This document shows, piece by piece, positions 4,590 through 57,787 of a DNA stretch of 64,000 nt. Source of the stretch: an uncultured bacterium. Its GTDB lineage: Bacteria > Omnitrophota > Omnitrophia > Omnitrophales > Abzuiibacteriaceae. Numbering within the stretch: position 1 is the stretch's first letter; every line of letters starts with the position of its first letter. Under the pieces are notes generated by a model, which saw only the letters and a program-made list of their open reading frames with translations, was not told the origin of the DNA and ran no database searches. A program made the translations under genes and the position numbers. The DNA lies in NCBI GenBank assembly GCA_964387845.1, contig CAYLXA010000002.1, positions 96,001 to 160,000 of the forward strand, written 5' to 3'.

Positions 4590-4607
4590 GCACGTCAAAT
4601 AGTTGAC

Positions 4608-6560
4608 ATGAATACACTTTTAATTCTTGATGATTTGGCGGAGCTTCTATCATCTAAAAATAAAACCATACAAAAGCTGCTTTCGGCGTACTTGCAGCAT
4701 TTGGCGCGTTCAGCCGATGGCGCGGCTGAGGAGTTGTTGCGTGACGGTGATACGGTTTTTGCGGCAGGTCCGCAGGAGGTTTTAAGCCGTGTCACAGGAC
4801 CTTGCGAAAAGCTGGATTACGGAATCTGGTTCGATACAATCCCGTTTGCGCGCGGCGGGGAGATTGCAGGAAAGATAGTGGAGCAGATTCGGGTTTCCGA
4901 AGAGCTTAAGTCGATCTGCCCGTTTCTGTATCGGAACACGATTTCAATTCCAAAAATCGCCGCGATGCGGCTGATCATTACATTCTGCTACCACGCGGTC
5001 AATAATTATCTTTTACTTGAAAGCATCATTCGAAAAAAGCAAATTCAGAAAATCGTGGTTTTGGGGTCTGGTGCTGAAATTGAAATTTTAGGAAAAGAAT
5101 TGTCAAAGAAGCATCGCTTACAGTTTCAAGTCATGCGCCCTCATGATGTAATTTTAAAATTAAAAGTTAGGTTTGCTGATTATCTTTTTTATCGAGACAG
5201 AAAACTTCATGCCCTTCAATCGTTTCAAAACTGCGACAGCTTGCCTAAGCAAGAAATCAAGAAGAGGAACCATAAAAAATTGATCGCCATGCTTCCGGCG
5301 CATTCCCTTCATTTTAAAATCATGGACTCGCTCATGGGCGCGCTTCGCCAATCGCGCAATTATGAGCCATGCGTGCTGCTTCAAGATGCTTTTGAGCCGT
5401 ATCAAGGGGCATTGAAAAATTCGGGAATAGCATTCCGATTTCTTCATGATTTTTCGAGCAGGGAACTTATGGGAAAATTTCAAAATTATTTTAAAAATCT
5501 CAAATCTGCTTGGAAGAAATTAAGAAATTCGGATACATTTAAATCTGCGTTTGACTGCGATGGGCTCAATTGGTTCGATATTCTGAGAGTCGAAATGGAG
5601 TGGTTTTTTAAATTCAGCTATGCTGAAACGCTGGTCTTGCAGGAGCGCTTACGAAAAGCGATGGCAGATGTGCCGATAGATTCCGTTTTTACTTTTAGCG
5701 ATTCACGGTTTTTTGAAGCGGGAGGTGCGGCAATTGCACGGGAGATGAAAAAGCCCTCGTTTTTATATTCTCCTAATTTTTTATACGATACAGACGGTAT
5801 TAACGACTACGATACGGCGGAATTTGTTTTGACCGTGGGCAATCAAATGAAAGATTATATTGCGGCGCGCGGCAAGGTGAATCCGAGTCAAATTTTCACC
5901 GTTGGCGATATCCGTTTTGACGGAAGCGAAAAATGGCGAAGCAGCGATCAGGCCGAGAAAACTCGTGTACAGCTTCAAATTCCATCGGACAAAAAGGTAT
6001 TTATTCTAACCTCGTTTTACACTTGCTTTGGCTATAATGCATACGACAAGAAACGCTTCTTTGAAATGATTCGAGATGCCGCCAAAGCCAATCCGGACGT
6101 TGCGATTGTGATCAAGGCACATCCGAACGAGAGCGAAGAAGTTCTGCGGCAATTTGTTAAAAGTTTGGGCATGAGTGATTTTCCGTTAACAAAAACAATG
6201 CCGCTTTATTCGCTGTTTGGAATATCCAGCGGGCTTATTTCGTTGACGTCTCTTGCGGCAGTCGAAGCCATGGCATTGGATTTACCGGTTATCATTGCGA
6301 CGCTGCCGGATCGAAATTACGATTACTATATCCCATTTCGCCAATCCGATTCGGCAGCGTATGCTGCAAGCGCCGAAGAGCTCTCCTTGATTTTTAGAAA
6401 ATTAATTGATGAATCGAACTACAAAAAAAATTTGTTGGAACGGCATCGACAATTTGTTTCGCGTTATGTGGACCGAGGCGGGCAGAGCGCCGGCCAACGG
6501 GTTATTCAGGTTCTAGATAAAATTGTGAATTCCGAACGTGAGAATTTGGGGCAGCTCTAA
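4608..6560 (+). CDS. TagF-like GT-B glycosyl/glycerophosphotransferase family protein with HP motif (possible CMP-nonulosonate transferase)
   Basis: C-terminal half resembles CDP-glycerol glycerophosphotransferase/capsule biosynthesis family (KVFILTSFYT..., VIKAHPNESEE HP motif); sits directly upstream of CMP-sugar synthetase gene. Confidence 0.4.
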   Translation: MNTLLILDDLAELLSSKNKTIQKLLSAYLQHLARSADGAAEELLRDGDTVFAAGPQEVLSRVTGPCEKLDYGIWFDTIPFARGGEIAGKIVEQIRVSEELKSICPFLYRNTISIPKIAAMRLIITFCYHAVNNYLLLESIIRKKQIQKIVVLGSGAEIEILGKELSKKHRLQFQVMRPHDVILKLKVRFADYLFYRDRKLHALQSFQNCDSLPKQEIKKRNHKKLIAMLPAHSLHFKIMDSLMGALRQSRNYEPCVLLQDAFEPYQGALKNSGIAFRFLHDFSSRELMGKFQNYFKNLKSAWKKLRNSDTFKSAFDCDGLNWFDILRVEMEWFFKFSYAETLVLQERLRKAMADVPIDSVFTFSDSRFFEAGGAAIAREMKKPSFLYSPNFLYDTDGINDYDTAEFVLTVGNQMKDYIAARGKVNPSQIFTVGDIRFDGSEKWRSSDQAEKTRVQLQIPSDKKVFILTSFYTCFGYNAYDKKRFFEMIRDAAKANPDVAIVIKAHPNESEEVLRQFVKSLGMSDFPLTKTMPLYSLFGISSGLISLTSLAAVEAMALDLPVIIATLPDRNYDYYIPFRQSDSAAYAASAEELSLIFRKLIDESNYKKNLLERHRQFVSRYVDRGGQSAGQRVIQVLDKIVNSERENLGQL

Positions 6561-6564
6561 TCAC

Positions 6565-7281
6565 ATGGCAAAAAAAATATTACTAACCATTGCTGCCCGC
6601 GGCGGTTCAAAAGGTGTTAAGAATAAAAACATTCGAATGCTTCACGGAAAGCCGTTGATTGCCCACACAATTCATGCTGCGTTGAAATGGGGAAAGGCAG
6701 ATCGTGTAGTGGTCAGCACTGACTCGGCTGCAATTGCACGAGCAGCGCGGAAATATGGCGCTGAAGTCCCGTTCTTGCGGCCCGCTGCGTTTGCTCGGGA
6801 TTCTTCCCCAAAATGGCATGCATTAAAGCATGTATTGGAACAATCTGAGAAATTCTTCAACGAACGCTATGATTTGGTGATTGACCTGGATGTAACGGCG
6901 CCAATTCGCAGCGGGCAGGATATTGATGTGTGTCTTCAAAAGTTTTTACGCTTCAAACCCAAAACGCTTTTCAGCGTAACGCTCGCCCATAAGAATCCGT
7001 ATTTTAATATGGTGGAAGAAACAAAAAATGGTCGCGTGCGGGTCTCAAAGAAGTTGAGGACAAGCATTGTCCGGCGTCAGGATGCGCCCAAGGTTTACGC
7101 AATCAATGGTTCGATTTATGTTTATTCGCGTAATTACCTGCTCAAGTCTAAAAATCCTATTGCGACGAGCGATGATTCAATTATTCACGTGATGGATGAA
7201 CTAAGCGGTATCGACATAGACCGTGAAATCGATTTCAAATTCGTTGAATTCTTAATTCGCGAAGGCATGGTAAAGTTTTGA
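6565..7281 (+). CDS. neuA: acylneuraminate cytidylyltransferase family (CMP-nonulosonic acid synthetase, NeuA/LegF/PseF-like)
   Basis: N-terminal ILLTIAARGGSKGVKNKN motif diagnostic of CMP-NeuAc/CMP-Kdo synthetase family; start chosen at MAKKILL (6565), just after upstream stop at 6560. Confidence 0.75.
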   Translation: MAKKILLTIAARGGSKGVKNKNIRMLHGKPLIAHTIHAALKWGKADRVVVSTDSAAIARAARKYGAEVPFLRPAAFARDSSPKWHALKHVLEQSEKFFNERYDLVIDLDVTAPIRSGQDIDVCLQKFLRFKPKTLFSVTLAHKNPYFNMVEETKNGRVRVSKKLRTSIVRRQDAPKVYAINGSIYVYSRNYLLKSKNPIATSDDSIIHVMDELSGIDIDREIDFKFVEFLIREGMVKF

Positions 7282-8817: not shown

Positions 8818-8825
8818 GAGCAATA

Positions 8826-9659: not shown

Positions 9660-9661
9660 TT

Positions 9662-10495: not shown

Positions 10496-10499
10496 AGCT

Positions 10500-11723
10500 A
10501 TGACGCAATCTGAAACTCAAAATAAATTTAAAACCAAGTACGGTTTGCCGTCAGAAGTAATTTTCTGCAAGCGTTGCGTCATGTCAAACCAGCGGCCCGC
10601 TTCAAGTAAAGAATTCAAGCATACCAAATCTCAAAAACACACAACGCTTAATATTCCAAACGATGGTATCTGCGATGCGTGCCGTTACGCGGATAAAAAA
10701 GAAGAAATCAATTGGAAAAGCCGAGAAGCCGAACTTTTGAAACTGCTCGACCGCCACCGCAAAACGGACGGAACTTACGATTGCATTGTTCCTGGAAGCG
10801 GCGGAAAAGACAGTGTTTATGCAGCGCACTTGCTCAAATACAAATACGGTATGCATCCTTTGACGGTCACTTGGCCGCCAATTCTTTACACCGATATTGG
10901 TTACGCGAATTTTAGAAATTGGCTCTACAAAGGCGGTTTCGATAACATTTCGTTTAATTACAACGCCAAAGTTCATGCACTATTAACAAGACTCGCCATC
11001 GAAAACCTTCTTCATCCTTTTCAACCTTTTATTCTTGGACAAAAAAACCTCGCGCCCAAGCTCGCTTTAAAATATGAAGTGCCTTTGATTTTCTACGGTG
11101 AAAGTGAAGCAGAATATGGAAATCCGCTTGCAGAGACCGCAACCTCGCTCCGCGATAAATCTTATTTCACGATGGAAAATCTTTCCGATATTCATTTGGG
11201 CGGCGTAAGCGTGAAAGAACTTCAGGAAAAATACAAACTCACAATCAACGACATTATGACTTATTTGCCGCCGACGGCATCCGAGGTCGCCAAAATGAAT
11301 ATGGAAGTTCATTACCTTGGTTATTATTTAAAATGGACACCGCAGGAAGCCTATTATTACTCGGTTGAAAATGTGGGTTTTCAGGCAAATCCATTCCGCA
11401 CCGAAGGCACTTACAGCAAATACAACAGTTTGGATGATAAAATAGACGGCTTCCACTATTACACCACTTTCATTAAATTTGGCTTAGGTCGCGCAAGTTA
11501 CGATGCATCACAAGAAATTCGCAACAAACATTTGACGCGGGAAGAAGGTATAGCGCTTGTCCGCAAGTTTGACGGGGAGTTTCCTCAAAAATATTTTCAG
11601 GAAATCATGGACTATATCGGCATGAAGCCCGATCATTTTCTGGATCTTTGCGACCAATTCCGGTCTCCGCATTTATGGAAAAAAGAAAATGGGAAGTGGA
11701 TCTTGCGCTATCCGGTCAATTAA
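10500..11723 (+). CDS. N-acetyl sugar amidotransferase (PP-loop ATP pyrophosphatase, WbuX/PseA-type)
   Basis: PP-loop SGGKDS within CIVPGSGGKDSVYAAHLL; N-terminal Cys cluster CKRCVMSN...CDACRY; genomic pairing with hisH/hisF paralogues as in WbuXYZ systems. Confidence 0.75.
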   Translation: MTQSETQNKFKTKYGLPSEVIFCKRCVMSNQRPASSKEFKHTKSQKHTTLNIPNDGICDACRYADKKEEINWKSREAELLKLLDRHRKTDGTYDCIVPGSGGKDSVYAAHLLKYKYGMHPLTVTWPPILYTDIGYANFRNWLYKGGFDNISFNYNAKVHALLTRLAIENLLHPFQPFILGQKNLAPKLALKYEVPLIFYGESEAEYGNPLAETATSLRDKSYFTMENLSDIHLGGVSVKELQEKYKLTINDIMTYLPPTASEVAKMNMEVHYLGYYLKWTPQEAYYYSVENVGFQANPFRTEGTYSKYNSLDDKIDGFHYYTTFIKFGLGRASYDASQEIRNKHLTREEGIALVRKFDGEFPQKYFQEIMDYIGMKPDHFLDLCDQFRSPHLWKKENGKWILRYPVN

Positions 11724-15368: not shown

Positions 15369-16379
15369 ATGAATCTTAAAGGCAAAAGAGTTCTGGTTAC
15401 CGGAGCCGATGGTTTTATCGGTTCTCATTTGACCGAAGCGCTGGTGAGGCGTGGATGTAACGTACGCGCGTTCGTATTTTACAATTCGTTCAATTCATGG
15501 GGCTGGCTGGATGAGTCGCCAAAGGATATCAGAAAGTCTTTGGACGTGGTTGCTGGAGATGTCCGCGATCCGCACGGTGTCCGAGAAGCCGTAAAGGGAT
15601 GTGACGTTGTCATGCACCTGGCAGCGCTTATTTCAATTCCGTTTTCGTATCATTCGCCGGATGCTTTTGTTGATACAAACATAAAGGGGACTCTCAACGT
15701 GTTGCAGGCATCTCGAGATTCAAAAGTAAGCAAAATTATTCATACCTCCACGAGCGAAGTTTACGGAACCGCGCAGTTTGTGCCCATTACGGAAGAGCAC
15801 CCATTGCAGGGCCAATCACCCTATTCGGCCTCAAAAATTGGGGCTGATCAGATGGCTACGGCTTTTCACTCAGCGTTCCAAACACCGGTTTGTATTTTTC
15901 GGCCGTTCAATACATATGGTCCAAGGCAGTCAGCGCGCGCGGTTATTCCTTCTATTATTATTCAAATCGCAACGGGAAAGAGTGAGATCAAGCTTGGATC
16001 TGTCCATCCAACTCGAGATTTTACCTATGTATCCGACACGGTCGAAGGTTTTATCAAAGCCGCGGAATCAGAAAAGTCGGTTGGCGAGGTGATTAACGGG
16101 GGTAGTAATTTTGAGATCTCAATTTCGGATACCGTAAAATTGATTAGCAAAATCTTAAACCGAAAAATTGCGGTCATAAGCGATAATCAAAGAATTCGCC
16201 CGAAAGCAAGCGAGGTGGAGCGATTGTGGGCTGACAATAAGAAGGCAAAAAAACTACTTAACTGGAAGCCTGCGCATAGCGGTTTAGAAGGTTTTGAAAA
16301 GGGGCTAAGAAAAACCGTGGACTGGATCTCGCAAGCGGATATTTTAAAGCGATACAAAGAAGAGATTTATAACATTTAA
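15369..16379 (+). CDS. NAD-dependent sugar-nucleotide 4,6-dehydratase/epimerase, extended SDR (LegB/PseB/RmlB-like)
   Basis: Rossmann VLVTGADGFIGSHL, catalytic YSASK (SPYSASKIGADQ); RBS GGAGA. Confidence 0.8.
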   Translation: MNLKGKRVLVTGADGFIGSHLTEALVRRGCNVRAFVFYNSFNSWGWLDESPKDIRKSLDVVAGDVRDPHGVREAVKGCDVVMHLAALISIPFSYHSPDAFVDTNIKGTLNVLQASRDSKVSKIIHTSTSEVYGTAQFVPITEEHPLQGQSPYSASKIGADQMATAFHSAFQTPVCIFRPFNTYGPRQSARAVIPSIIIQIATGKSEIKLGSVHPTRDFTYVSDTVEGFIKAAESEKSVGEVINGGSNFEISISDTVKLISKILNRKIAVISDNQRIRPKASEVERLWADNKKAKKLLNWKPAHSGLEGFEKGLRKTVDWISQADILKRYKEEIYNI

Positions 16380-16381: not shown

Positions 16382-17557
16382 ATGAAGCGAATAAAATCCA
16401 ACATAGACGCCACAAGTGTTCTGAAGGCTGTTAGGAAGTGCTTGCCCGGGGACAGTCGCCCCATCCAACTTCACGAGCCCTGGTTTGCCGGCAACGAGCA
16501 GAAGTATGTCAGTGCGTGCATTAAGAGCGGGATTGTTTCATCGATCGGGCCTTATGTTGAACAGTTTGAGAAACAATTGATCCGATTGACAGGCTCAAAA
16601 TTTGCAATTGCCACGATCAACGGAACAGCTGGGCTTCATACGGCACTCCGAATGGCCGGAGTAGAGGCAAATGATGAGGTTTTAGTGCCGTCATTGTCAT
16701 TCGTTGCAACATCAAATGCGATCGCGTATTGCGGCGCTATTCCTCATTTTATTGACAGTGAGATGCGGGCGCTTGGCGTTGATCCGCACAAGCTTCAGGA
16801 TTATTTGGTAAAAATATCCAAACGGCGAAATAGCGGCTTCATCAATAAAACAACAGGCCGGAGAATAAGAGCGGCGGTTGTGGTGCATACATTCGGCCAC
16901 CCGGCGGATCTTGACGCTATCCAGGCAGTTTGCAAAAAATTTAAACTTCCACTAATTGAAGATGCTGCAGAATCGATCGGATCCTATTACAAAGGGAAGC
17001 ACACCGGTACAATCGGAGACTTTGGTGTTTTAAGCTTTAACGGCAACAAAACAATCACGTCAGGCGGCGGAGGCGCGATTTTAGTACAGAATCAAAAACT
17101 GGCAAAACATCTCCGGCACATTACAACCACCGCTAAAATACCTCATGCTTGGCGTTATTATCATGATGAAATCGGATATAATTATCGGCTTCCCAATCTA
17201 AACGCTGCGCTTGGCTGTGCGCAATTGGAGTCGCTGCCGATGTTTATCAAGCGCAAACGGGCCTTAGCCAAACGTTACGAGAAGGCTTTCTCCCATATTA
17301 ATGGAGTTAGTTTTATTAAGGAACCTCCTTTTGCAAAAAGCAACTACTGGCTAAATGCTGTCAGGCTGGAAGGTGTTGGATTGCGGGAAAGAGATCGGTT
17401 TTTAACGCTTATGCACACGCACAACATTAAAACAAGGCCGGTGTGGACACTGACGCATCGTCTTCCTATGTATCGAAATTGCCCGCGAATGGATATGTCC
17501 GTATCAGAGAAAATTGAAAAAGAAACTATTAACCTGCCCAGCAGCCCAGCGTTATGA
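16382..17557 (+). CDS. DegT/DnrJ/EryC1/StrS-family PLP-dependent sugar aminotransferase (LegC/PseC-like)
   Basis: Family-typical segments GDEVLVPSLSFVATSNAI, FGVLSFNGNKTITSGGGGAIL (PLP-lysine region). Confidence 0.8.
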   Translation: MKRIKSNIDATSVLKAVRKCLPGDSRPIQLHEPWFAGNEQKYVSACIKSGIVSSIGPYVEQFEKQLIRLTGSKFAIATINGTAGLHTALRMAGVEANDEVLVPSLSFVATSNAIAYCGAIPHFIDSEMRALGVDPHKLQDYLVKISKRRNSGFINKTTGRRIRAAVVVHTFGHPADLDAIQAVCKKFKLPLIEDAAESIGSYYKGKHTGTIGDFGVLSFNGNKTITSGGGGAILVQNQKLAKHLRHITTTAKIPHAWRYYHDEIGYNYRLPNLNAALGCAQLESLPMFIKRKRALAKRYEKAFSHINGVSFIKEPPFAKSNYWLNAVRLEGVGLRERDRFLTLMHTHNIKTRPVWTLTHRLPMYRNCPRMDMSVSEKIEKETINLPSSPAL

Positions 17558-19737
17558 AGCGAAGAATTTGTGTAGTTACTAGTTCGCGCGCCGATTTTGG
17601 TCATCTGCAGTGGGTCATGACCTATCTGAAAAAAGATCCGAGAGTTCGCTTGCAAGTTGTGGTGACCGGCTCACACTTATCTCGCGCGCATGGAACCACC
17701 TTGCGCGAAATTCAGGACGCGGGAATTTCTGAATCTGCTCGGATTCCAATCATTGCAAAAGGGGATTCTGTTGTTGCGATAACGCAAGCGGCTGGAATGG
17801 CATTGAGCAGATTTGCAAAGGTCTTTGACAGGCTCAAACCCGAATTGCTGCTGGTTGTGGGAGATCGTTATGAAATTCATTCGGCCGTAACGGCGGCGCT
17901 TCTCGCTAAAATTCCGGTTGCACATATTGCCGGTGGCGACATTACGGAAGGGGCATTCGATGACGCGTTGCGGCACAGTATCACCAAAATGGCTCATTTG
18001 CACTTTGTGACAAATGCCGTGTCGGCGAAACGAATTCGGCACATGGGAGAAAACCCTTCGCATATTTTTAACGTTGGAAATCCTGCGCTTGACCATGTAA
18101 CGAAATCAAAATTATTCACTAAAAACGAAATTGAGGAGAAGCTTGCTTTCAAAATGCGCTCACGCAATATCTTGATTACGTTTCATCCGGTTACGCTGGA
18201 CACCGAACCATCTGACCGGCAATTTAAACAGTTGCTGAGCTCGCTGAATCGGTTGGGAGACGAATATGGCCTTATTTTTACTAGGCCCAACGCGGATCCG
18301 GCAGGACAAAAGATATCTAAATTGATCGATCATTTTGTCAAAACGCATTCAAACGCTATTGTAAAAGCCTCGCTAGGTCATTTGTTATACTTAAGCATCA
18401 TGAATGAAGTTGATTTGGTTGTCGGAAATTCATCAAGCGGGATTTATGAGGCGCCAACATTTAAAATTCCCACAGTTAACATCGGAAACCGGCAAAAAGG
18501 CCGCTTGCGAGCGGCTTCTGTGATTGATTGCGCGCCGAGCAGGGCGGCAATTAGCCGAGCAATTCGGTCAGCTCTAGCAAAGGATTGCTCGCAGGTTGAA
18601 AATCCTTACGGACGGGGAAATAGTTCCGAGCAAATTTATAAGATTATTCGCTCTGTCCAGAACCCAAAAACACTAATTCAAAAGAAATTTTATGATGCCG
18701 GCGTGCCCACTAAAACTGGGCCGGTTTATGTGATCGCCGAAGCGGGGGTGAATCATGGCGGCTCGCTGAAACTTGCAAAAAAACTGATCGACGCAGCTTC
18801 GCAAGCCGGCGCTAATGCGGTCAAGTTTCAAACTTTTGATTCGGATATGCTGGTAACGCGACAAGCTAAAAAAGCAAAATACCAGCAAGACACAACCGGC
18901 AAAAATGGGTCTCAATATGAAATGCTCAAAAAATTAGAACTCAGCCAGAAAGATCATTTTGCGCTGAAAGCTCACTGCAAAAAAAGAAAAATTGATTTTT
19001 TATCGACCCCTTTTGATTTAAAAAGCCTTGATTTCTTAATCAACAATCTGCAGGTCCGGAAAATTAAAATATCTTCAGGCGATATTACCAACGGGCCGCT
19101 ACTGTTGAAAGCTGCGGAATCAAAACTTCCGATTATTTTATCAACCGGAATGTCAACGCTTGACGAAATTGAAGCTGCCGTAAGATTGATCGAGAAAGGA
19201 TATCGATCCAGCGCCTCTCTTTTAAAATCAAACTTAAAACTGCTTCATTGTACAAGCGAATATCCGGCCTCATTTTCTGATATGAATTTGTTATCGATCG
19301 ATTTTTTAAGAAATTATTTTCAATTGGATGCCGGGCTGTCAGATCATTCGAGCGGGATAGCAGCTGCAATTGCAGCCGTAGGGCGCGGCGCATCCATTAT
19401 TGAAAAACACATTACTTTGAATAAAAGCATGGCAGGCCCCGATCACCGCGCATCGCTTGATCCGAATGAGTTTCGAGAACTGGTTCGATCAATTCGCCAA
19501 GTCGAAGAAGCTATGGGATCCTACGTAAAAAGGCCGGCAGCGTCAGAATTAAAAAACCGAAGCGCAGCCAGAAAGAGCATCGTCGCTTCCAAGCCGATTA
19601 AACGCGGAGAAAGGCTGACCCGTCACAATCTGGCGCTGAAGCGTCCCGGTGTCGGGATCAGCCCCATGAATCTTTCGGAAGTCATAGGACGACTATCAAC
19701 CAAAAATTATAAAAAAGACGATATCATTGTTATCTAA
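17554..19737 (+). CDS. bifunctional fusion: N-terminal hydrolysing UDP/GDP-HexNAc 2-epimerase (NeuC/LegG-like) + C-terminal nonulosonic acid synthase with SAF domain (NeuB/LegI-like)
   Basis: N-term RICVVTSSRADFGHL...VVTGSHL, LLVVGDRYEIHS (NeuC family); C-term YVIAEAGVNHGGSL...NAVKFQTF, LLHCTSEYPA, SDHSSG (NeuB TIM barrel) and C-terminal SAF/antifreeze-like domain. Confidence 0.8.
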   Translation: MKRRICVVTSSRADFGHLQWVMTYLKKDPRVRLQVVVTGSHLSRAHGTTLREIQDAGISESARIPIIAKGDSVVAITQAAGMALSRFAKVFDRLKPELLLVVGDRYEIHSAVTAALLAKIPVAHIAGGDITEGAFDDALRHSITKMAHLHFVTNAVSAKRIRHMGENPSHIFNVGNPALDHVTKSKLFTKNEIEEKLAFKMRSRNILITFHPVTLDTEPSDRQFKQLLSSLNRLGDEYGLIFTRPNADPAGQKISKLIDHFVKTHSNAIVKASLGHLLYLSIMNEVDLVVGNSSSGIYEAPTFKIPTVNIGNRQKGRLRAASVIDCAPSRAAISRAIRSALAKDCSQVENPYGRGNSSEQIYKIIRSVQNPKTLIQKKFYDAGVPTKTGPVYVIAEAGVNHGGSLKLAKKLIDAASQAGANAVKFQTFDSDMLVTRQAKKAKYQQDTTGKNGSQYEMLKKLELSQKDHFALKAHCKKRKIDFLSTPFDLKSLDFLINNLQVRKIKISSGDITNGPLLLKAAESKLPIILSTGMSTLDEIEAAVRLIEKGYRSSASLLKSNLKLLHCTSEYPASFSDMNLLSIDFLRNYFQLDAGLSDHSSGIAAAIAAVGRGASIIEKHITLNKSMAGPDHRASLDPNEFRELVRSIRQVEEAMGSYVKRPAASELKNRSAARKSIVASKPIKRGERLTRHNLALKRPGVGISPMNLSEVIGRLSTKNYKKDDIIVI

Positions 19738-19746
19738 AGACGCGTC

Positions 19747-20340
19747 ATGAGAGAAGAGATTGATAAACCCATTATTGTGATTGGGGCTGGAGGGCATGCC
19801 AAAGTCCTGATCGACGCACTGCGGTTAATGGGATGCCAGGTGTTGGGCGCAACCGAAAAAAAACCGGAAATAATTGATCAGGCAAAACTTCCGGTGAAGC
19901 TTTTGGGAAACGACGATGAAATATTAAAGCATTCACCCGACAGCATACTGCTCGTTAACGGTGTAGGCCAAGTTGGGGTAGGGCCAAGTCGCTCTCAGAT
20001 ATTTGATAGATATAAATCAAAAGGCTATCGGTTTGCAATCATCCAACATCCCCGAGCCGTTGTCGCGGCTGATGTTGAATTGCATGAGGGCGCACAAATT
20101 ATGGCTGGTGCAATCATTCAAACTGCTTCCAAAATTGGCTGTAACACCATTGTGAATACAGGCGCATCGATTGACCATGATTGCCAAATTGAAAGCCATG
20201 TCCATATTGCGCCTGGAGCCATTTTGTGCGGGATGGTTGAAGTGGGAGAGGGATCTCATATTGGCGTTGGTGCTATTCTCATTAACAATACAAAAGTGCC
20301 GCGAAACAGTTTTATTAAGTCCGGTACTCTGGTGAAGTAA
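19747..20340 (+). CDS. NeuD/PglD/LegH-family sugar N-acetyltransferase (hexapeptide repeat, left-handed beta-helix)
   Basis: N-terminal IIVIGAGGHAKVLIDAL Rossmann-like segment followed by hexapeptide repeats (IGCNTIVNTGASIDHDCQI...). Confidence 0.7.
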   Translation: MREEIDKPIIVIGAGGHAKVLIDALRLMGCQVLGATEKKPEIIDQAKLPVKLLGNDDEILKHSPDSILLVNGVGQVGVGPSRSQIFDRYKSKGYRFAIIQHPRAVVAADVELHEGAQIMAGAIIQTASKIGCNTIVNTGASIDHDCQIESHVHIAPGAILCGMVEVGEGSHIGVGAILINNTKVPRNSFIKSGTLVK

Positions 20341-20350
20341 GGAGTTTGTT

Positions 20351-21397
20351 ATGGAAATTTGGAAAAAAACGCTCGTATCAAAGTTAACGCCGATCAAAGA
20401 AGTGATTAAAGTAATCGATGCGGGATCTTTGCAAATTGCTTTGGTCGTTGATGAAAATTATAAGCTTTTAGGAACCGTTACCGACGGTGATGTTCGCCGC
20501 GGCATTTTAAAAAACATATCCATGAATGATCCCGTGCACAAAATTATGCAGTCGAAACCAGTCATTGCAAAACTGGGCGAGGAGCGAGAAAAAGTTTTGG
20601 TACGCATGAAAGAAAAGCAGATCAATCAAATTCCATATCTTGATCAAGCGGGGCGTGTCAAAGGACTTGAAGTTATCCATGATTTGCTTAACGGATCCGC
20701 AAAAGATAATCCTGTATTATTGATGGTGGGCGGCCTGGGAAGCCGGCTGCAACCAATCACAAACGATCTTCCGAAGCCGCTCATTAAAGTCGGTGGCAAG
20801 CCGATTTTGGAACGCATTTTAGAGGATTTGATTGAATACGGCTTCCGGAAGTTTTACTTTTCCGTATTTTATAAATCCGAAATGATTCAAGAATATTTCG
20901 GTGATGGCAGCCGCTGGGATGTGGAAATTCGGTATATTCGCGAGCAAAAGAGAATGGGCACTGCCGGCGCCTTGAGCCTTCTTCCTGAAAAGCCTTCGGC
21001 ACCAATTTTAATTATGAACGGAGATTTGGTTACAAAAGTTAATTTTCAGCATCTTTTTGATTTTCATCAGCAGCAATCCGGCGATTTGACCGTGTGCGTC
21101 CGTGAGTATGATTTTCAAGTGCCTTACGGCGTTATTAAAATGAACGGTCATCTTATTTCAGGCATCGACGAAAAACCGGTGCATAAGTTTTTTGTAAACG
21201 CCGGAATTTATTTGATGGAGCCTGCGCTTTTGCGAAACATATCCAAAAACCGTTTTTTAGACATGACCCAGCTGATTGAAAAATTGAAGTCCAAAAAGAA
21301 AATTCTCGCATTTCCGATCCGTGAATATTGGCTCGATATCGGCCGGCACGACGACTTAAAGCGTGCAACCGAAGAAATCGAGTCGTTGTTTAAATAA
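20351..21397 (+). CDS. CBS-domain pair fused to sugar-phosphate nucleotidyltransferase (PtmE-like)
   Basis: Two CBS-like segments at N-term then LLMVGGLGSRLQPITNDLPKPLIKVGGKPILE nucleotidyltransferase signature; strong RBS AAGGAG. Confidence 0.65.
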   Translation: MEIWKKTLVSKLTPIKEVIKVIDAGSLQIALVVDENYKLLGTVTDGDVRRGILKNISMNDPVHKIMQSKPVIAKLGEEREKVLVRMKEKQINQIPYLDQAGRVKGLEVIHDLLNGSAKDNPVLLMVGGLGSRLQPITNDLPKPLIKVGGKPILERILEDLIEYGFRKFYFSVFYKSEMIQEYFGDGSRWDVEIRYIREQKRMGTAGALSLLPEKPSAPILIMNGDLVTKVNFQHLFDFHQQQSGDLTVCVREYDFQVPYGVIKMNGHLISGIDEKPVHKFFVNAGIYLMEPALLRNISKNRFLDMTQLIEKLKSKKKILAFPIREYWLDIGRHDDLKRATEEIESLFK

Positions 21398-21420: not shown

Positions 21421-22224
21421 ATGAACTCATCAACCGTACCCCAAATCAGCATTTTACTTTGTGTTCACAACGGTGAACGAACAGTTGAGCAAGCGATCAA
21501 CAGTCTTCTTGCTCAGACGTTTAAGGATTTTGAGCTCATCGTGATCAATGATGGGTCAACCGATTCTACTCTCGCTCAGTTAGAGAAATTTCAAGACCCA
21601 AGAATCTTCATTCAAAGCATCCCCCGGCGCGGACTCACGAAAGCGCTCAATGTGGGGCTTGCTCAATGCCGCGGTGAATTCATTGCGCGCGTCGATGCTG
21701 ATGATGTTGCGCTGCCTAATCGGCTTGAGCGCCAGGCTGTATTCTTAAATAAGCATCGAAGCGTGGGCGTGATTGGGACCGGGTATGAAATTTTAACTGA
21801 AAACGGTTCGCGAAAACGGGCGACCGTCCCTCTCCTGGAAACCGATTATGAAATCAAGCAAGCTCTTCCGAAATTTAACCCGTTTCACCACGGGTCAGTC
21901 ATGATTCGCCGGCAAATTTTGATCGAAGAGGGCGGCTATGATGAAAATTTTAAACTGGCTCAGGATTATGAACTGTGGCTCAGGCTATCAGGACGTTGCC
22001 AAATGGCTAATATCGGGGAAGTTCTGATGGTGCGCAGAGAGGGCCGAGAAACACTCAAAAAAGAACGCGAACAAAATTGGTACGGAATCAAGGCCAGATT
22101 GAAAGCAATTCAGCGAGGGAATTTAAGTTTTTGGAACGTGATCTACATTCTTCGCCCATTTTTAGTTGTGCTAACACCGGACTGGATAAAATCCGTTATT
22201 CGAAAATTGATCCGAAATGCCTAA
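21421..22224 (+). CDS. glycosyltransferase family 2
   Basis: ISILLCVHNGERTVEQAINSLLAQTFKDFELIVINDGSTDST (GT2 N-terminal signature), DxD-type ARVDADD. Confidence 0.7.
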   Translation: MNSSTVPQISILLCVHNGERTVEQAINSLLAQTFKDFELIVINDGSTDSTLAQLEKFQDPRIFIQSIPRRGLTKALNVGLAQCRGEFIARVDADDVALPNRLERQAVFLNKHRSVGVIGTGYEILTENGSRKRATVPLLETDYEIKQALPKFNPFHHGSVMIRRQILIEEGGYDENFKLAQDYELWLRLSGRCQMANIGEVLMVRREGRETLKKEREQNWYGIKARLKAIQRGNLSFWNVIYILRPFLVVLTPDWIKSVIRKLIRNA

Positions 22225-24412
22225 AATTAAAATCCTATTCATTGATTCTCGCGGAGACTTTGGCGGGGGATCGAACCATCTGCTGTCCATTTTGGAATCT
22301 CTGGATCCGAATAAATTCGACGCATTTGTTGCAGCGCCGTCCGGTCAAGGCAATTCGGAGAAATACCGGAAACTTTGCCGTGCATTCTGTGATATTCCAT
22401 TCCGGAAATTTTCACTCGATGCTTTTCGTGATTTAGTTGAGTTTGCCGAAACCCACCAAGTTCATTTTGTCCATTCCCACGGCCGCGGGGCTGGCATCTA
22501 TAGCCGCTTTATTTTTTGGAAAACCAAAATTCCGGCCATTCATACTTTTCACGGAATTTCTTATGGATTCTTCGGAGCATTCATCGACCGCTTTTTAAAA
22601 AAATGGACAGCCAGGTTTATCCATGTTTCTGATTCTGAGCGGGAAGCCGCGGCTAATCTTGGGGTTTCCGATCCGCGCAGGGCAGTGACCATCTACAACG
22701 GGATCGACTACAGGTGTTTTCAATCGGGTAAAAGCAGAAAAGATGCAAAAGCATCGCTTGGGTTAAGTTTAGATCATTTTGTCATTGGATGCGTGGCTAG
22801 ATTTGATGCTTGCAAGCGCCACCAAGATTTAATCGAAGCCTTGGCTTTATTGACTACTCGCTATCCCAATCTGCGTTTAGTGCTGGCTGGTGACGGCGAA
22901 ACGCGTATAAAGATCGAGCAATTGGCAAATGAATGTGGTGTCTTGGGTAAAGTTTTATTTTTGGGAGAACAAAAAAATCCTCAAATCGTTTATGCGGCAT
23001 CTGATGTATTCGTGCTCGCATCCGAATTTGAGGGCCTTCCTTTAGCGCCTCTGGAGGCGATGGCAGCGGGTTGTGCGGTTGTGTTATCGAATGTGCGCGG
23101 CAACCGGGATGTGGTTCAGGATGAAAAAGACGGCCTGCTATTCGAAGCAAAAAATCCGGAAGCGCTTGCTGCTGCCATTGCGCGGTTAATCGGCAGCCAG
23201 GAGCTGCAGTCAAGACTTATCGAATCGGCCCACAGGACCGTGATTGAGCGATTTTCCATCGATCGCATGCGTGCACAAATTTATGCTTTTTATGAAACCC
23301 TTGTTCCGGTTCCGAAATTCCGGAAAGCCGCGTTGACGCACGACTGGCTTTTTCATATGCGCGGAGGGGAAAAAGTTTTGGAGTCCATCGGAGAACTTTT
23401 TCCGCTTGCGCCCATCTACACGCTTTTTCTCGATCAGAAAAAACTGTCTGAATCCATTAACCGGCACCAGATAATTGCCTCGTGGCTGAACCAGATCCCT
23501 CTCATTGCCGGGTTTTACCGGTATCTACTCCCCCTATTTCCGTTGGTGATGAAGCAATTTGATATCAAAGATCATCTTTTAATCGTTAGCAGCAATCACT
23601 GCGCTGCTAAATCTATCTCGAAGGGGAGGCGCGCGCTACACATTTGCTATTGTCACGCACCAATGCGCTACGCATGGGGTTTTGAATCAGAATATTTTGG
23701 CCGGTTTCCGTTTTTTCTCCGCAGTCTGATCAGGACAGTTCTGAGCTGGCTTCGTTATCGCGATCTCGGATCTAATCCCGGCGTCGATCACTTTATTGCA
23801 AACTCTCAGAATATTAGAAAACGCATCAACCAATACTATGCAAGAGAAGCTGATGTGATTTACCCGCCGATTCAGAAGCGGTTGAAACAGTGTGAGCCTG
23901 CCCAATCGAGCGAGTACTTGATTGTCTCGGCGCTCGTTCCTTACAAACGGATCGATATAGCCGTGCAGGCATTCAACGAATTACAGCTTCCGCTAACAAT
24001 CATCGGGTCCGGCCCCTTATTGCCATCTCTGCAAAAGCAAGCGAAATCGAATATCCGGTTTTTGGGTTGGCAGCCTGATCATGAAGTCGCAAAATATTAT
24101 GCCAGCTGCAAAGCGCTCATTTTTCCGACCGAAGAAGACTTTGGCATGGTTCCGGTTGAGGCAATGATGTACGGAAAGCCGGTGATTGCGTTTGCGTGCG
24201 GCGGCGCGCTTGAAACCGTGATTCCCGGAAAAACAGGACTGCTTTTTGATGCACAAACACCGGAAGCGCTAACCAACGCCGTAAAACAGTTTTCCATTAA
24301 TCAGTTTGACTCTAAAGCCATTACAGCCTATGCTCAGAAATTTAGCGCCGAGCACTTTAATGATGCCGTTATAAAACTTTTGTCGGAATTTACCAATGGT
24401 CAAGCAAACTAA
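22217..24412 (+). CDS. two-module GT4 glycosyltransferase (tandem GT-B domains)
   Basis: 731 aa; first module ends with EFEGLPLAPLEAMAAGCAVV (EX7E), second with EDFGMVPVEAMMYGKPVIAF; ATG overlaps upstream stop. Confidence 0.6.
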   Translation: MPKIKILFIDSRGDFGGGSNHLLSILESLDPNKFDAFVAAPSGQGNSEKYRKLCRAFCDIPFRKFSLDAFRDLVEFAETHQVHFVHSHGRGAGIYSRFIFWKTKIPAIHTFHGISYGFFGAFIDRFLKKWTARFIHVSDSEREAAANLGVSDPRRAVTIYNGIDYRCFQSGKSRKDAKASLGLSLDHFVIGCVARFDACKRHQDLIEALALLTTRYPNLRLVLAGDGETRIKIEQLANECGVLGKVLFLGEQKNPQIVYAASDVFVLASEFEGLPLAPLEAMAAGCAVVLSNVRGNRDVVQDEKDGLLFEAKNPEALAAAIARLIGSQELQSRLIESAHRTVIERFSIDRMRAQIYAFYETLVPVPKFRKAALTHDWLFHMRGGEKVLESIGELFPLAPIYTLFLDQKKLSESINRHQIIASWLNQIPLIAGFYRYLLPLFPLVMKQFDIKDHLLIVSSNHCAAKSISKGRRALHICYCHAPMRYAWGFESEYFGRFPFFLRSLIRTVLSWLRYRDLGSNPGVDHFIANSQNIRKRINQYYAREADVIYPPIQKRLKQCEPAQSSEYLIVSALVPYKRIDIAVQAFNELQLPLTIIGSGPLLPSLQKQAKSNIRFLGWQPDHEVAKYYASCKALIFPTEEDFGMVPVEAMMYGKPVIAFACGGALETVIPGKTGLLFDAQTPEALTNAVKQFSINQFDSKAITAYAQKFSAEHFNDAVIKLLSEFTNGQAN

Positions 24413-43062: not shown

Positions 43063-43077
43063 ATTGAGCGGAGCCGT

Positions 43078-49867: not shown

Positions 49868-49887
49868 ACCAGCATTGACTGGTTTTT
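49867..49887 (+). terminator. weak intrinsic terminator-like hairpin after secG
   Basis: AACCAG-cattga-CTGGTT followed by TTTTTG; short stem, low confidence. Confidence 0.3.
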
Positions 49888-51976
49888 GAGTCGGCCGATG
49901 ATTCAATCTCAGACTCACGCAGCCAGCAAGCCTGTCCGATATTTAAAGGGGATTGGCCCTAAACGCTCGGAAGCATTGGAGCGCTTGGGAATCAAAACCA
50001 TCTACGATCTCTGTTTTTTCCTTCCGCGCCAATACCAAGACCGCAGCAACTTTGCCCAAATTGCGGATATACGCCCAAATACTTATGTAACCTTAAAAGG
50101 AAAGGTGTCTGCCGTGACGTGGCGCCCCATGAAACGGATCGGGGTTCTAGAATTGTGGCTTCAGGACAAAAGCGGGGCTATTCTTGCTATTTGGTTCAAC
50201 CAGCCGTTTCTTAAGAAAAATTTTCAGGAAGGCGCGGAGCTTATTTTAAGCGGAAAAGCAGAAGTTTATAAAAACCGGCTGCAAATTGTATCACCGGAAT
50301 ACGAGATCGTGGATGCGCAAGATGACGATACGGTCCATACCGGCAGGATTACACCCATCTATCCGCTGAGCGAAGGACTTTTTCAGCGTTCAGTACGCCT
50401 GGCGATGAAAGAGCTGGTTGATCATCATTTGGCCGAAGAGGTGAGTGACTACATGCCAGATGCTATCAAAAAAGAACACAAGCTTTTGAATTTGATTGAA
50501 GCAGTCCGAGAACTTCATTTCCCATCCGAATTTGACGCGTTAAAAAAAGCACAAGACCGGATCATTTTTGATGATTTCTTTTTATTCGAGCTTCAGTTGC
50601 TTAAAAAAATGCAGCAGATCAAAGAAAAATATAAAAGCGCCTCGATTCCATTTTCGGAAAGTGACCTAGAGCAGTTTGAAAAAACTTTGCCGTTCCGATT
50701 AACCCAAGGACAGCGAAAAGCCATCCAAGAAATCGGTGCCGAGATTGCATCGCCGATGCCGATGAGCCGGCTGCTGCAAGGCGAGGTCGGATCCGGAAAG
50801 ACGGTGGTTGCGGCATTCTTTTTTCAACTCGCCGCCAAATGTAAAATACAGTCTGCCTTTTTAATCCCAACCGAGGTGTTGGCAGAGCAGCATGAAGCAA
50901 CGCTTAAAAAAACACTCGAGCAATATCCGGTCCGGGTTGAGCTGCTCACAGCAAGCGTTGATGATCAAAAGCGCGGTGAAATTTTACGCGATTTGCAGCT
51001 TGGAAAAGTCGATGTCCTGGTCGGAACGCACGCCATGCTTCAGGAGTCGGTTTCTTTCCGAAAGTTGGGCTTTGTTGTGATTGACGAACAGCACAAGTTC
51101 GGCGTCCGGCAGCGAGCCCAACTCTTGAGCCGAGATCCGCGGCCGCATCTTTTGGTGATGTCTGCAACGCCGATTCCCAGGACTTTGGGGCTGACGTTAT
51201 ACGGCGACCTCAGTATTTCAACCATTCGCGAACTTCCCAAAAACAGAAAGCCGATTAAAACCGAATGGATGCCTGAAGCAAGGCGGACTGATGTCTATAA
51301 GCAAGTCAAAACCCGTATTGCAAAAGGCGAGCAGGCTTACATGATGTTCCCGATTATCGAAGAAACCGAAAGATTAGATTTGCAGGCCGCTTCACAGGAA
51401 TTTGAAAAATTAAAACGCGGCGAATTTAAGGATTTCCGTTTGGGACTGATTCACGGCAGAATGTCGAAAGACGAGCGCAATAAAGCGATGAGTGATTTTA
51501 AATCGGGCAAATTGCATATGTTGGTCAGCACATCCGTCATCGAGGTCGGCGTCGATAATCCAAATGCCACAATGATGATCATTCAACACGCGGACCGGTT
51601 TGGCCTTTCGCAGCTCCACCAAATCCGGGGCCGGATCGGCCGGGGAGAGCTAGAGTCAATTTGTTTTTTAATCGCCGATCCCAAAACGGAGAATGCCAAA
51701 ATCAGGCTTGAAGCGCTTGTCAAAACAAACAACGGCTTTGAAATTGCGGAGGAAGATTTAAAATTGCGCGGGCCCGGTGAATTTTTCGGGCTTCGGCAGA
51801 GCGGCGCACCTATGTTTCGGCTGGCCGATATTACGCGCGACTATCAAGTGCTGGAAACTACTCGGGAAAGTGCAAAGCGAGTTTTAAAATCAGACCCAAG
51901 CCTCTCCCGCGAGGACCATCGTCTTCTTGCTCGGGAATTAATAAAGCAATACGGCGGAGGCTCGGCTCAAGAATGA
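49886..51976 (+). CDS. recG: ATP-dependent DNA helicase RecG
   Basis: Wedge/OB N-terminal region, Walker A GEVGSGKT, DEQHKFG, helicase C-terminal motifs QIRGRIGRG. Confidence 0.92.
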   Translation: MSRPMIQSQTHAASKPVRYLKGIGPKRSEALERLGIKTIYDLCFFLPRQYQDRSNFAQIADIRPNTYVTLKGKVSAVTWRPMKRIGVLELWLQDKSGAILAIWFNQPFLKKNFQEGAELILSGKAEVYKNRLQIVSPEYEIVDAQDDDTVHTGRITPIYPLSEGLFQRSVRLAMKELVDHHLAEEVSDYMPDAIKKEHKLLNLIEAVRELHFPSEFDALKKAQDRIIFDDFFLFELQLLKKMQQIKEKYKSASIPFSESDLEQFEKTLPFRLTQGQRKAIQEIGAEIASPMPMSRLLQGEVGSGKTVVAAFFFQLAAKCKIQSAFLIPTEVLAEQHEATLKKTLEQYPVRVELLTASVDDQKRGEILRDLQLGKVDVLVGTHAMLQESVSFRKLGFVVIDEQHKFGVRQRAQLLSRDPRPHLLVMSATPIPRTLGLTLYGDLSISTIRELPKNRKPIKTEWMPEARRTDVYKQVKTRIAKGEQAYMMFPIIEETERLDLQAASQEFEKLKRGEFKDFRLGLIHGRMSKDERNKAMSDFKSGKLHMLVSTSVIEVGVDNPNATMMIIQHADRFGLSQLHQIRGRIGRGELESICFLIADPKTENAKIRLEALVKTNNGFEIAEEDLKLRGPGEFFGLRQSGAPMFRLADITRDYQVLETTRESAKRVLKSDPSLSREDHRLLARELIKQYGGGSAQE

Positions 51977-53583: not shown

Positions 53584-53790
53584 ATGGGTCTTCCTAAAAG
53601 GCGCCACTCAAACGAAAGAACGCGCACGCGCCGCGCGCATGATTTTCTGACGGCGACTGCACTGGCGAAGTGTGCCAATTGCGGAGCGCCGAAACTATCG
53701 CACAGAATTTGCCCGTCCTGCGGCTACTACCGGGGCAAGCAAGTCATCACCATTAAAGTTAAATCCAAGAAAGAAGACAAGGCATCATGA
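53584..53790 (+). CDS. rpmF: 50S ribosomal protein L32
   Basis: MGLPKRRHS N-terminus, zinc ribbon CANCG...CPSCG; RBS AAGGAG. Confidence 0.9.
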   Translation: MGLPKRRHSNERTRTRRAHDFLTATALAKCANCGAPKLSHRICPSCGYYRGKQVITIKVKSKKEDKAS

Positions 53791-55843: not shown

Positions 55844-55847
55844 TACT

Positions 55848-57547: not shown

Positions 57548-57787
<240 letters not shown>

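Follow-up and report, generated by a model that had tools for sequence, protein, structure and literature searches.

Legionaminic acid is a sialic-acid-like sugar of bacteria. The closest described counterparts of the locus reported here are LegG (Cj1328) and LegI (Cj1327) of Campylobacter jejuni and BFO_1065/BFO_1066 of Tannerella forsythia, enzymes of the same two families that catalyze consecutive reactions and are encoded by separate, adjacent genes. In the GDP-linked pathway to CMP-legionaminic acid of these bacteria, their partners are LegB, LegC, an N-acetyltransferase, PtmE, and LegF (PMC5378307). Solved structures exist for both families. Acinetobacter baumannii NeuC/LegG (5XVS/5ZLR), a hydrolyzing GDP/UDP-N,N'-diacetylbacillosamine (diNAcBac) 2-epimerase, is a stand-alone protein of ~380 aa; Neisseria meningitidis NeuB (NmNeuB; 1XUU/1XUZ), which makes Neu5Ac from ManNAc, is a stand-alone, domain-swapped dimer of a TIM barrel plus SAF protein. 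The only nonulosonate fusions found described are GNE and a Leptospira protein. In GNE a homologous hydrolyzing 2-epimerase domain, which acts on UDP-GlcNAc and is allosterically regulated by CMP-Neu5Ac (PMC13214540), is joined to the next enzyme of its pathway, a kinase. In Leptospira interrogans, NeuB carries a C-terminal phosphatase-like partner, a natural fusion from which the course of that pathway was inferred (PMC3438082). The full-text literature searched, which mostly excludes subscription journals, yielded no account of NeuC joined to NeuB, or LegG to LegI, in nature.

In the stretch of DNA analyzed here (64 kb, referred to below as the window), LegG and LegI lie instead on one polypeptide, joined, as judged from sequence alone, by a linker of ~10 residues. 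The logic is the consecutive-step logic of GNE with a synthase, rather than a kinase, as the partner, and the epimerase is N-terminal, unlike the C-terminal partner of Leptospira NeuB. The operon partners of C. jejuni and T. forsythia are shared (LegF as a candidate only), and a PtmE homologue is present in both cases. The features of the locus are as follows.

6538-7281, + strand: candidate CMP-nonulosonate synthetase (LegF-like cytidylyltransferase; Pfam CTP_transf_3, 70 bits)
15369-16379, + strand: LegB-type NAD-dependent 4,6-dehydratase, step 1 (TIGR04180, 522 bits, cut-off 475)
16382-17557, + strand: LegC-family aminotransferase, step 2 (TIGR04181, 524 bits, cut-off 420)
17554-19737, + strand: predicted fused LegG-LegI bifunctional protein (single ORF, 727 aa plus stop)
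17554-18690, + strand: hydrolyzing NDP-sugar 2-epimerase domain, NeuC/LegG type, residues 1-379 (TIGR03568)
18691-18723, + strand: inter-domain linker, residues 380-390 (YDAGVPTKTGP), the segment of lowest conservation
18724-19527, + strand: nonulosonate synthase TIM barrel (NeuB/LegI), residues 391-658 (Pfam NeuB, TIGR03569)
19573-19728, + strand: SAF (antifreeze-like) domain of the synthase, residues 674-725 (Pfam SAF, 38 bits)
19747-20340, + strand: NeuD/PglD-family N-acetyltransferase, LegH-like, step 3 (TIGR03570, 181 bits, cut-off 161)
20351-21397, + strand: PtmE-like protein with CBS and nucleotidyltransferase domains, indicative of the GDP-linked route (Pfam CBS, NTP_transferase)

The fused ORF is uninterrupted in the ORF listing of the window, and its ATG overlaps the stop codon of the LegC-like gene that precedes it (ATGA at 17554-17557). 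A first-pass annotation had read it as a complete 2-epimerase followed by a complete synthase barrel and SAF domain, with limits at residues ~1-380 and ~385-727; full-length Pfam and NCBIfam matches bear out this architecture, and the limits were right to within a few residues. The fusion of a full 2-epimerase to a full nonulosonate synthase is real.

The N-terminal half belongs to the epimerase family defined by NCBIfam TIGR03568 and Pfam PF02350. It matches NeuC_NnaA (TIGR03568) over residues 3-365 (model positions 1-365 of 365; 434 bits, cut-off 236) and Epimerase_2 over residues 25-366 (profile positions 3-347 of 347; 280 bits); the non-hydrolyzing WecB model, TIGR00236, gives 97 bits, under its cut-off of 210. 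Among solved structures, its closest relative is the 2-epimerase of A. baumannii (260 bits, residues 3-372), with which it has the motifs GDR-E, GG(D/E)-TEGA-D, and GNSSSG-E in common, and GNE (4ZHT) gives 169 bits. An AlphaFold2 (AF2) model of the whole 727-aa protein has a mean pLDDT of 90.3 and a pTM of 0.68. In Foldseek comparisons it matches 5XVS_B with a TMt of 0.96 (rmsd 1.9 A) and GNE 4ZHT with a TMt of 0.92; as modeled, this half has a two-Rossmann-domain (GT-B-like) fold that superposes on the solved hydrolyzing epimerases. Residues D104, R105, E107, H124, D136, R140, K145, H150, and H211 are invariant among 25 aligned fused homologues. The catalytic acidic triad of this family is D100/E122/D131 in N. 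meningitidis SiaA, equivalent to D112/E134/D143 in GNE. Of the GNE triad, D112 and D143 have their counterparts in D104 and D136, and Ala126 occupies the position of E134; in this column the solved enzyme of A. baumannii has His, and the fused homologues have A, H, G, or C.

The C-terminal half belongs to the synthase family of NCBIfam TIGR03569 and Pfam PF03102 plus PF08666. The match to NeuB_NnaB (TIGR03569) covers residues 391-725 (model positions 1-329 of 329; 461 bits, cut-off 400) and that to Pfam NeuB residues 411-658 (profile positions 1-240 of 241; 303 bits). Across the fused protein, E-values of the domain matches run from 1e-83 to 1e-138, which excludes chance matches to both families. 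The AF2 model aligns with 1XUU and 8H2C at a TMt of 0.78-0.88; for NmNeuB, whose identity to the window protein is ~33%, the TMt is 0.78. E396, K424, H598, E617, H619, and D630 align with NmNeuB E25, K53, H215, E234, H236, and D247, and R697 in the SAF domain aligns with R314; all seven are invariant in the alignment of the 25 fused homologues (alignment A1). In NmNeuB, H215/H236 are the metal-binding His pair, E25/E234 the catalytic Glu residues, and R314 the SAF Arg that closes the active site of the partner. A loop of ~20 aa in the synthase barrel, present in most fused homologues, is missing from the window protein. Specificity was also sought from solved synthases, with NmNeuB, CjPseI, and B. 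subtilis SpsE giving 163, 173, and 158 bits, respectively; these scores are too alike to separate Leg, Neu, and Pse.

Between the two domains, conservation drops to a majority fraction of 0.36, versus 0.60 and 0.67 for the domains themselves; the invariant anchors F379 and I394 lie 12-24 aa apart across homologues, and the block 381-390 has a mean pLDDT of 64, weaker than both confident domains. In unfused relatives LegG ends in KKFY(D/E)-x and LegI starts 5-12 residues ahead of IAEAGVNH; the window's linker lies at the site of their legG stop and legI start. Two other readings were considered and rejected. In-frame GTG codons 384, 393, and 399, candidates for an internal LegI start, lack an upstream Shine-Dalgarno-like motif. 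Programmed stop read-through leaves no sign either: ~10 of ~47 closely adjacent legG-legI pairs are in-frame, a share that does not exceed the third to be expected at random. An Rfam scan of the 64-kb window gave zero matches.

The two genes are normally separate, as had been assumed from the outset: among the matches listed in a scan of GTDB species representatives (600 stretches, a set that excludes the window's own genome), the two genes are unfused in 75 of 75 loci that have both next to each other. A search for orthologous fusions, suggested by the first-pass annotation, turned up 43 further 90%-identity clusters with the NeuC-NeuB order and ~42-59% identity per domain. Members of this group (P0002-P0043; e.g. 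MGE5390773.1, from a Deltaproteobacteria MAG) match the window protein in their NeuC-NeuB-SAF order, are uncharacterized, and align continuously across a conserved junction; the only named sources of fused homologues are a Deltaproteobacteria MAG (P0003) and a Nanoarchaeota MAG (P0052). By its NeuC domain, the window protein groups within a clade of 25 proteins, of which 22 are fused. There are two NeuC-NeuB clades in all, together with ~12 fusions in the reverse, NeuB-NeuC order and one NeuA-NeuB-NeuC triple fusion. Fused proteins make up only ~14 of the best 150 50%-identity clusters, so that the architecture deserves the description "uncommon"; however, it is less singular than that first description implied, since public databases already list it with the domains in either order. 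The JGI name for these proteins is [quoted passage not shown], while NCBI names give a single function, "N-acetylneuraminate synthase" or "UDP-GlcNAc 2-epimerase". By these counts the fusion is rare yet recurrent, occurring in the predicted proteins of dozens of other uncultured microbes.

The gene order in the window is legB-legC-[legG-legI]-legH-ptmE. The same order surrounds the fused homologues (three loci examined) and is found at many unfused loci, and a PtmE-like gene follows legH both at the loci of the fused homologues and in operons with the common BCGIHEF arrangement. The LegH-like protein has PglD_N and Hexapep domains, and the model that it matches, TIGR03570, is that of the NeuD/PglB/VioB subfamily. 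The PtmE-like assignment is one of architecture plus conserved synteny, the libraries used holding general models for this protein and none specific to PtmE. The LegF-like candidate fits its family and lies 9 kb upstream; it scores 131 bits against the PseF model (cut-off 206) and falls under the cut-off of every specific model. Because the operon context is that of the Leg pathway, the most likely product is legionaminic acid, built from precursors linked to GDP, and not Neu5Ac. According to PMC5378307, PtmE is indicative of GDP-linked precursors, which suggests GDP rather than UDP as the carrier. None of the enzymes that make GDP-GlcNAc from fructose-6-P (PtmA, PtmF, PgmL, GlmU-like) was recognized among the scanned ORFs of the window, and these may be encoded elsewhere in the genome. 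The specificity of LegI for 2,4-diacetamido-2,4,6-trideoxy-D-mannose is likewise suggested by context only, and the chemistry of both halves would be that expected from family membership and context. The first-pass annotation had called the halves NeuC-like and NeuB-like and had named both neuC/neuB and legG/legI as known systems; the context favors LegG/LegI (legionaminic acid) over NeuC/NeuB (Neu5Ac). Its statement that the two enzymes act at consecutive steps is supported.

The ORF thus probably encodes, with good confidence from the sequence comparisons, a genuine bifunctional LegG-LegI enzyme that was born in a Leg operon by loss of a stop codon. A single gene could also be mimicked by an error of sequencing or assembly that erased the stop between two genes. 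In six unfused loci (L002, L003, L006, L007, L021, and L067) legG and legI share a reading frame that one stop codon interrupts, and changing one base would be enough to join the two. Moreover, the identity of window positions 16554-20737 with the Logan assembly of run SRR15237813 (L001; 0 mismatches in 4184 nt) carries limited weight, since both assemblies probably derive from common reads and are hence not independent with respect to sequencing error. However, the agreement is perfect; inspection of the raw window sequence found no stop, no change of frame (18680-18730), and no long, error-prone homopolymer at the junction, where the first-pass annotation had advised a check for a missed stop or frameshift (18680-18720); the nearest 43 protein clusters are all fused alike; the fused proteins form clades; and one fused homologue (P0017) lies on 6 contigs, the two that were read coming from different JGI samples. 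Since the 43 clusters share both the architecture and a conserved junction and the second assembly is identical, an artificial read-through is so unlikely as to be nearly negligible. It is also very improbable, if slightly less so, that one domain is a decayed, non-catalytic remnant and the protein effectively monofunctional. Ala126 does replace a Glu that is catalytic in related hydrolyzing epimerases, and the ~20-aa barrel loop is missing; yet the solved and active A. baumannii enzyme likewise lacks that Glu, and N. meningitidis NeuB lacks the loop. Both halves are full-length and score above curated equivalog cut-offs, every other mapped catalytic or metal-binding residue is invariant, and the window holds no second copy of either gene to supply a missing step. 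Both halves look active, because the mapped catalytic residues, Ala126 excepted, are conserved, the LegG half is nearest to a solved diNAcBac 2-epimerase, and the AF2 model is confident.

A real fusion might nevertheless make another nonulosonic acid, either Neu5Ac from UDP-GlcNAc or 4-epi- or 8-epi-legionaminic acid. The matching NCBIfam models carry the names NeuC and NeuB, and similarity to solved Neu, Pse, and Leg synthases is equal. Against this, the gene is set between LegB and LegC equivalogs that score above cut-off and a LegH-like acetyltransferase, enzymes that make a 2,4-diacetamido-6-deoxy substrate for which Neu5Ac synthesis has no need; among solved structures, the epimerase half is best matched by a diNAcBac 2-epimerase; and the fused gene supplies the sole LegG and sole LegI, the only epimerase and only synthase of the window. 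In addition, the PseI model gives 272 bits on the synthase half, under its cut-off of 340, which argues against Pse specificity. A product other than legionaminic acid is therefore unlikely. Somewhat more open to debate, and still doubtful, is the idea that the fusion forms a true substrate channel, with a buried path or an obligatory pairing of active sites that would keep the free hexose from equilibrating with the cytoplasm at all. The reactions are consecutive and the shared intermediate is the pathway's sole sugar that is not nucleotide-bound; fusions of the same two domains have also arisen again and again, in either order and in one case with NeuA as well, which argues for an advantage of physical linkage. 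However, the linker is short, variable in length, and not conserved, the occurrence of both domain orders is hard to square with one inter-domain geometry, and the model, with a pTM of 0.68 and high per-domain pLDDT, does not clearly fix how the domains are oriented to each other. Furthermore, among the matches listed, the large majority of lineages that carry this operon lack the fusion. The first-pass annotation had spoken of channeling an unstable sugar; no support for instability of free 2,4-diacetamido-2,4,6-trideoxy-mannose was found in the full-text literature, and the only remark on lability encountered there, in PMC5378307, concerns unspecified biosynthetic intermediates and the GDP that they release. 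True channeling is possible; the benefit of linkage is most likely a fixed 1:1 stoichiometry and the nearness of two enzymes that pass on a free, non-nucleotide-bound sugar.

For the bifunctional LegG-LegI enzyme, the following route can be proposed. The fused gene would have arisen within the widespread legB-legC-legG-legI-legH-ptmE-legF operon when the legG stop codon was lost, so that LegG, ending at its natural C-terminus, leads by way of ~10 non-conserved residues into LegI at its natural N-terminus. The LegG half would strip the nucleotide from NDP-2,4-diacetamido-2,4,6-trideoxy-glucose (probably GDP-linked) and invert C2, releasing free 2,4-diacetamido-2,4,6-trideoxy-D-mannose; the LegI half would then condense this sugar with phosphoenolpyruvate to yield N,N'-diacetyl-legionaminic acid.

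These enzymes and their pathway are well known, and the biology itself is not new. The single-function names in databases, however, mask a bifunctional protein, one that is a ready-made candidate for a one-polypeptide catalyst from an NDP-diNAcBac precursor to legionaminic acid, attractive for the chemo-enzymatic synthesis of this sialic-acid mimic. The locus also places a complete set of genes for a legionaminic-acid surface glycan (LegF being a candidate) in a probable uncultured Omnitrophota bacterium. Finally, the fusion provides "Rosetta-stone" evidence, at the level of sequence, that epimerase and synthase gain from physical linkage, and in organisms whose genes are separate a complex of LegG with LegI, or of NeuC with NeuB, becomes an idea that can be tested. 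A bolder and rather improbable extension is that LegG-LegI acts as a two-step module handing the hexose from site to site, and that unfused LegG/NeuC and LegI/NeuB also form a physical complex; if this is true, the repeated independent fusions would amount to a prediction of a nonulosonate "metabolon" in ordinary bacteria.

The fused gene is a single ORF whose start codon overlaps the upstream gene's TGA stop as ATGA, and domain searches of its product match complete models in both halves:

17554..19737, + strand, fused epimerase-synthase ORF (read here as LegG-LegI), 727 codons
residues 3-365, NeuC_NnaA (NCBIfam), 434 bits against a cut-off of 236
residues 25-366, Epimerase_2 (Pfam), complete (profile 3-347 of 347)
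residues 391-725, NeuB_NnaB (NCBIfam), 461 bits against a cut-off of 400
residues 411-658, NeuB domain (Pfam), complete (profile 1-240 of 241)
residues 674-725, SAF domain (Pfam)

The NCBIfam models for WecB (non-hydrolysing) and PseI both score below cut-off. Because one ORF carries these complete Pfam and NCBIfam matches, the first-pass annotation, which had described two complete domains within this ORF, was correct in both description and coordinates.

The same annotation had raised the possibility that two genes were joined by an artificial read-through. Inspection of the junction sequence reveals no stop, frame change or long homopolymer, and the protein is present both on the NCBI contig (275.6 kb) and on the Logan assembly of SRR15237813, whose contig is identical to the window along 4184 nt. 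Stronger evidence against an artefact than this matching assembly comes from homologues. Querying 5.8 billion proteins gave 57 matches with a length of 600 aa or more, nearly all of which contain both domains. When the query is split into halves, 43 further clusters show the NeuC-then-NeuB arrangement too, at ~42-59% identity per half, and are fusions of the kind that the annotation had proposed looking for; one homologue (P0017) is present on six contigs, and the two examined come from different JGI samples. Judged by these comparisons, chance read-through cannot explain a fused state that is common to the window's closest relatives.

An alignment of 25 fused homologues spans the junction continuously, with the end of the epimerase marked by invariant K377 and F379 and the start of the synthase by invariant I394-A-E-x-G-V-N-H. 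In unfused relatives, the epimerase C-terminus reads ...KKFY(D/E) plus 1-10 residues and then a stop, and the synthase begins 5-12 residues ahead of IAEAGVNH. The window's ...KKFYDAGVPTKTGPVYVIAEAGVNH is nothing more than these natural epimerase and synthase termini joined. The spacing from anchor to anchor in fused homologues is 12-24 residues (median 15), and this Pro-, Ala- and Val-rich linker is less conserved than any other stretch of the protein (majority fraction 0.36 versus 0.60 and 0.67 in the domains). An AlphaFold2 model built with the 25-sequence alignment has a mean pLDDT of 90.3, dipping to an average of 64 in block 381-390; since its pTM is only 0.68, the domains are confident and their relative orientation less so. 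In Foldseek comparisons the N-terminal half superimposes on A. baumannii NeuC/LegG 5XVS (TMt 0.96) and the C-terminal half on NeuB 1XUU (0.78) and PseI 8H2C (0.88); no solved chain among the matches covers both halves.

Alignment to N. meningitidis NeuB pairs E396, K424, H598, E617, H619, D630 and R697 with NmNeuB E25, K53, H215, E234, H236, D247 and R314, residues that ligate metal, act in catalysis or, in the case of R314, supply the arginine of the SAF domain; all seven are invariant across the fused family. The window synthase barrel lacks a ~20-residue loop carried by most fused homologues, as does N. meningitidis NeuB. Invariant residues of the epimerase half are D104, R105, E107, H124, D136, R140, K145, H150 and H211. 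Ala126 (codon 126, 17929-17931) aligns with GNE E134, the catalytic Glu, equivalent to SiaA E122. The solved A. baumannii enzyme has His at this position and the column varies among fused homologues (A, H, G or C), and so a Glu here does not seem to define LegG-type enzymes.

Features of the surrounding locus that bear on the pathway are the following:

directly upstream of the fusion, LegB 4,6-dehydratase (TIGR04180, 522 bits against a cut-off of 475)
directly upstream of the fusion, LegC aminotransferase (TIGR04181, 524 bits against 420)
directly downstream, NeuD/PglD-family N-acetyltransferase (LegH-like)
directly downstream, CBS-nucleotidyltransferase (PtmE-like)
6538..7281, CTP_transf_3 cytidylyltransferase (LegF candidate)
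7278-8150, WbuZ/HisF-like gene
8122-8817, HisH glutaminase
8826-9659, TylF-like methyltransferase
10500-11723, WbuX N-acetyl-sugar amidotransferase (347 bits against 203)

Among solved structures, the closest to the epimerase half carries the annotation GDP/UDP-N,N'-diacetylbacillosamine 2-epimerase, and apart from the fusion the window encodes no epimerase or synthase. Given this relative, the Leg gene context and the sole copy, the protein is best read as LegG-LegI rather than as NeuC-NeuB in the Neu5Ac sense, with the identity of the product inferred. A PtmE homologue is the hallmark, in T. forsythia and C. jejuni, of the GDP-linked route to legionaminic acid, where LegG and LegI are consecutive (PMC5378307).

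The operon lies in a surface-polysaccharide locus with an ABC exporter, several glycosyltransferases, a Wzy_C protein, an initiating sugar transferase and a WbuX/HisH/WbuZ-like amidotransferase set. The four genes at 7278-11723, next to the LegF-like gene, suggest conversion of a sugar acetamido group to acetamidino, possibly with its methylation, as in Leg5Am7Ac-type derivatives. In a 650-aa protein (4608-6560), the C-terminal ~170 residues show weak similarity, below cut-off in each case, to TIGR04396 ("surface carbohydrate biosynthesis protein") and to the model for BFO_1060-family glycosyltransferases; BFO_1060 adjoins the Leg locus of T. forsythia, which makes this protein a candidate for the transferase of legionaminic acid. 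A 731-aa protein (22217-24412) has Glycos_transf_1 twice, making it a tandem (double) GT4 glycosyltransferase and a second fused gene of the locus.

Every one of the 53 ORFs that reach 150 aa in the whole 64 kb lies on the + strand, an unusually strict bias; cumulative GC skew climbs almost monotonically along the window and GC content is 41-49%. The RecG encoded at 49886..51976 has "Candidatus Omnitrophica bacterium" MAGs (52-55% identity) as its only organism-named relatives, and judged by this one marker protein the window probably belongs to an uncultured Omnitrophota genome. The presence of ordinary housekeeping genes indicates that the locus is chromosomal:

40816-47435, glycogen-metabolism block (GlgB, GH57 with DUF3536, 4-alpha-glucanotransferase)
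53787-59088, fatty-acid block plsX-fabH-fabD...fabF
59199-62822, SMC, after the fatty-acid block

Among the best 80 loci of GTDB species representatives, drawn from many phyla, legG and legI are separate in all 75 that hold both (G-then-I in 53, I-then-G in 22); with 0 of 75 fused, the architecture is uncommon, as first supposed. The order legB-legC-legG-legI-legH-ptmE-legF is a widespread operon, complete in 21 of the 80 and often met in partial form. P0021, P0035 and P0017, all fused homologues, occupy the same operon as the unfused genes; therefore, the fusion formed in place when the legG stop was lost. In six unfused loci of species-representative genomes (L002, L003, L006, L007, L021 and L067), legG and legI share a frame and are separated by a single stop (TAA or TGA, at ~9140-9186 within each locus), and a change of one base would be enough to fuse them. 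Pairs in the same frame are no commoner than expected by chance, and thus nothing suggests programmed read-through between the two genes. The genome of P0035 (L083, JGI 3300057240, a 1.5 Mb contig) also has a stand-alone NeuB+SAF gene (2398-3471, - strand), 4.5 kb upstream of the fused gene on the opposite strand, and so a second nonulosonate synthase.

Searched exhaustively with HMMER, 1.84 billion 50%-identity representatives yielded 7860 proteins at E<=1e-30, and the best 150 of these include only 4 full-length NeuC-NeuB fusions and ~10 NeuB-NeuC fusions. In neighbour-joining trees, one per domain, the window belongs to a NeuC clade in which 22 of the 25 members are fused; another clade, of 15 and purely fused, is set apart by unfused lineages. 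Since the trees are without bootstrap support, this is moderate evidence that the NeuC-NeuB order had at least two origins. Reverse-order fusions form ~12 clusters at 90% identity and have a different gene context. One of them (P0044, 765 aa; L086, Logan SRR22387949) adjoins a 702-aa CTP_transf_3-Aminotran_3 fusion (3911-6208 and 9266-11374, respectively). P0052 (982 aa; L087, 8001-10949), from the Nanoarchaeota MAG GCA_030697505.1, is a triple fusion of CTP_transf_3 (NeuA), NeuB/SAF and Epimerase_2 (NeuC), placing three nonulosonate steps on a single archaeal polypeptide. An N-terminal extension of 200-245 aa is seen in some NeuB-type synthases (P0173, P0185, P0197, P0222, P0226 and P0245), and some NeuC-type epimerases (P0161, P0186 and P0194) continue C-terminally for 230-350 aa without matching the synthase half of the query; such extensions are probably other fusion partners of the two enzymes.

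The bifunctional architecture is intact and has been kept long enough to diverge to ~40% identity, and the mapped active-site residues are preserved in both halves except at Ala126. From family and context, the N-terminal half would hydrolyse and 2-epimerise NDP-diNAcBac to a free manno-configured hexose, which the C-terminal half would condense with PEP to give Leg5Ac7Ac; LegF would then activate this product with CTP. Because fusion recurs independently, some advantage of linkage is argued for. Both domain orders occur, the linker is short and variable, and fusion is rare; all of this argues against a specific engineered tunnel and fits enforced 1:1 stoichiometry and proximity better; true channelling is improbable.

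Neither the enzymes nor their pathway and operon are new, and GNE, an epimerase-kinase fusion, is a known case of a nonulosonate enzyme joined to a neighbouring step. A NeuB-phosphatase fusion is present in Leptospira (PMC3438082). The epimerase-synthase fusion is itself in public databases, where JGI gives it a dual name; no published description or characterisation was found in the full-text literature, to which subscription journals are mostly external. The advance is modest: the fusion is a clean, real and rare Rosetta-stone case, which has some practical appeal for making legionaminic acid enzymatically but which specialists would find unsurprising.
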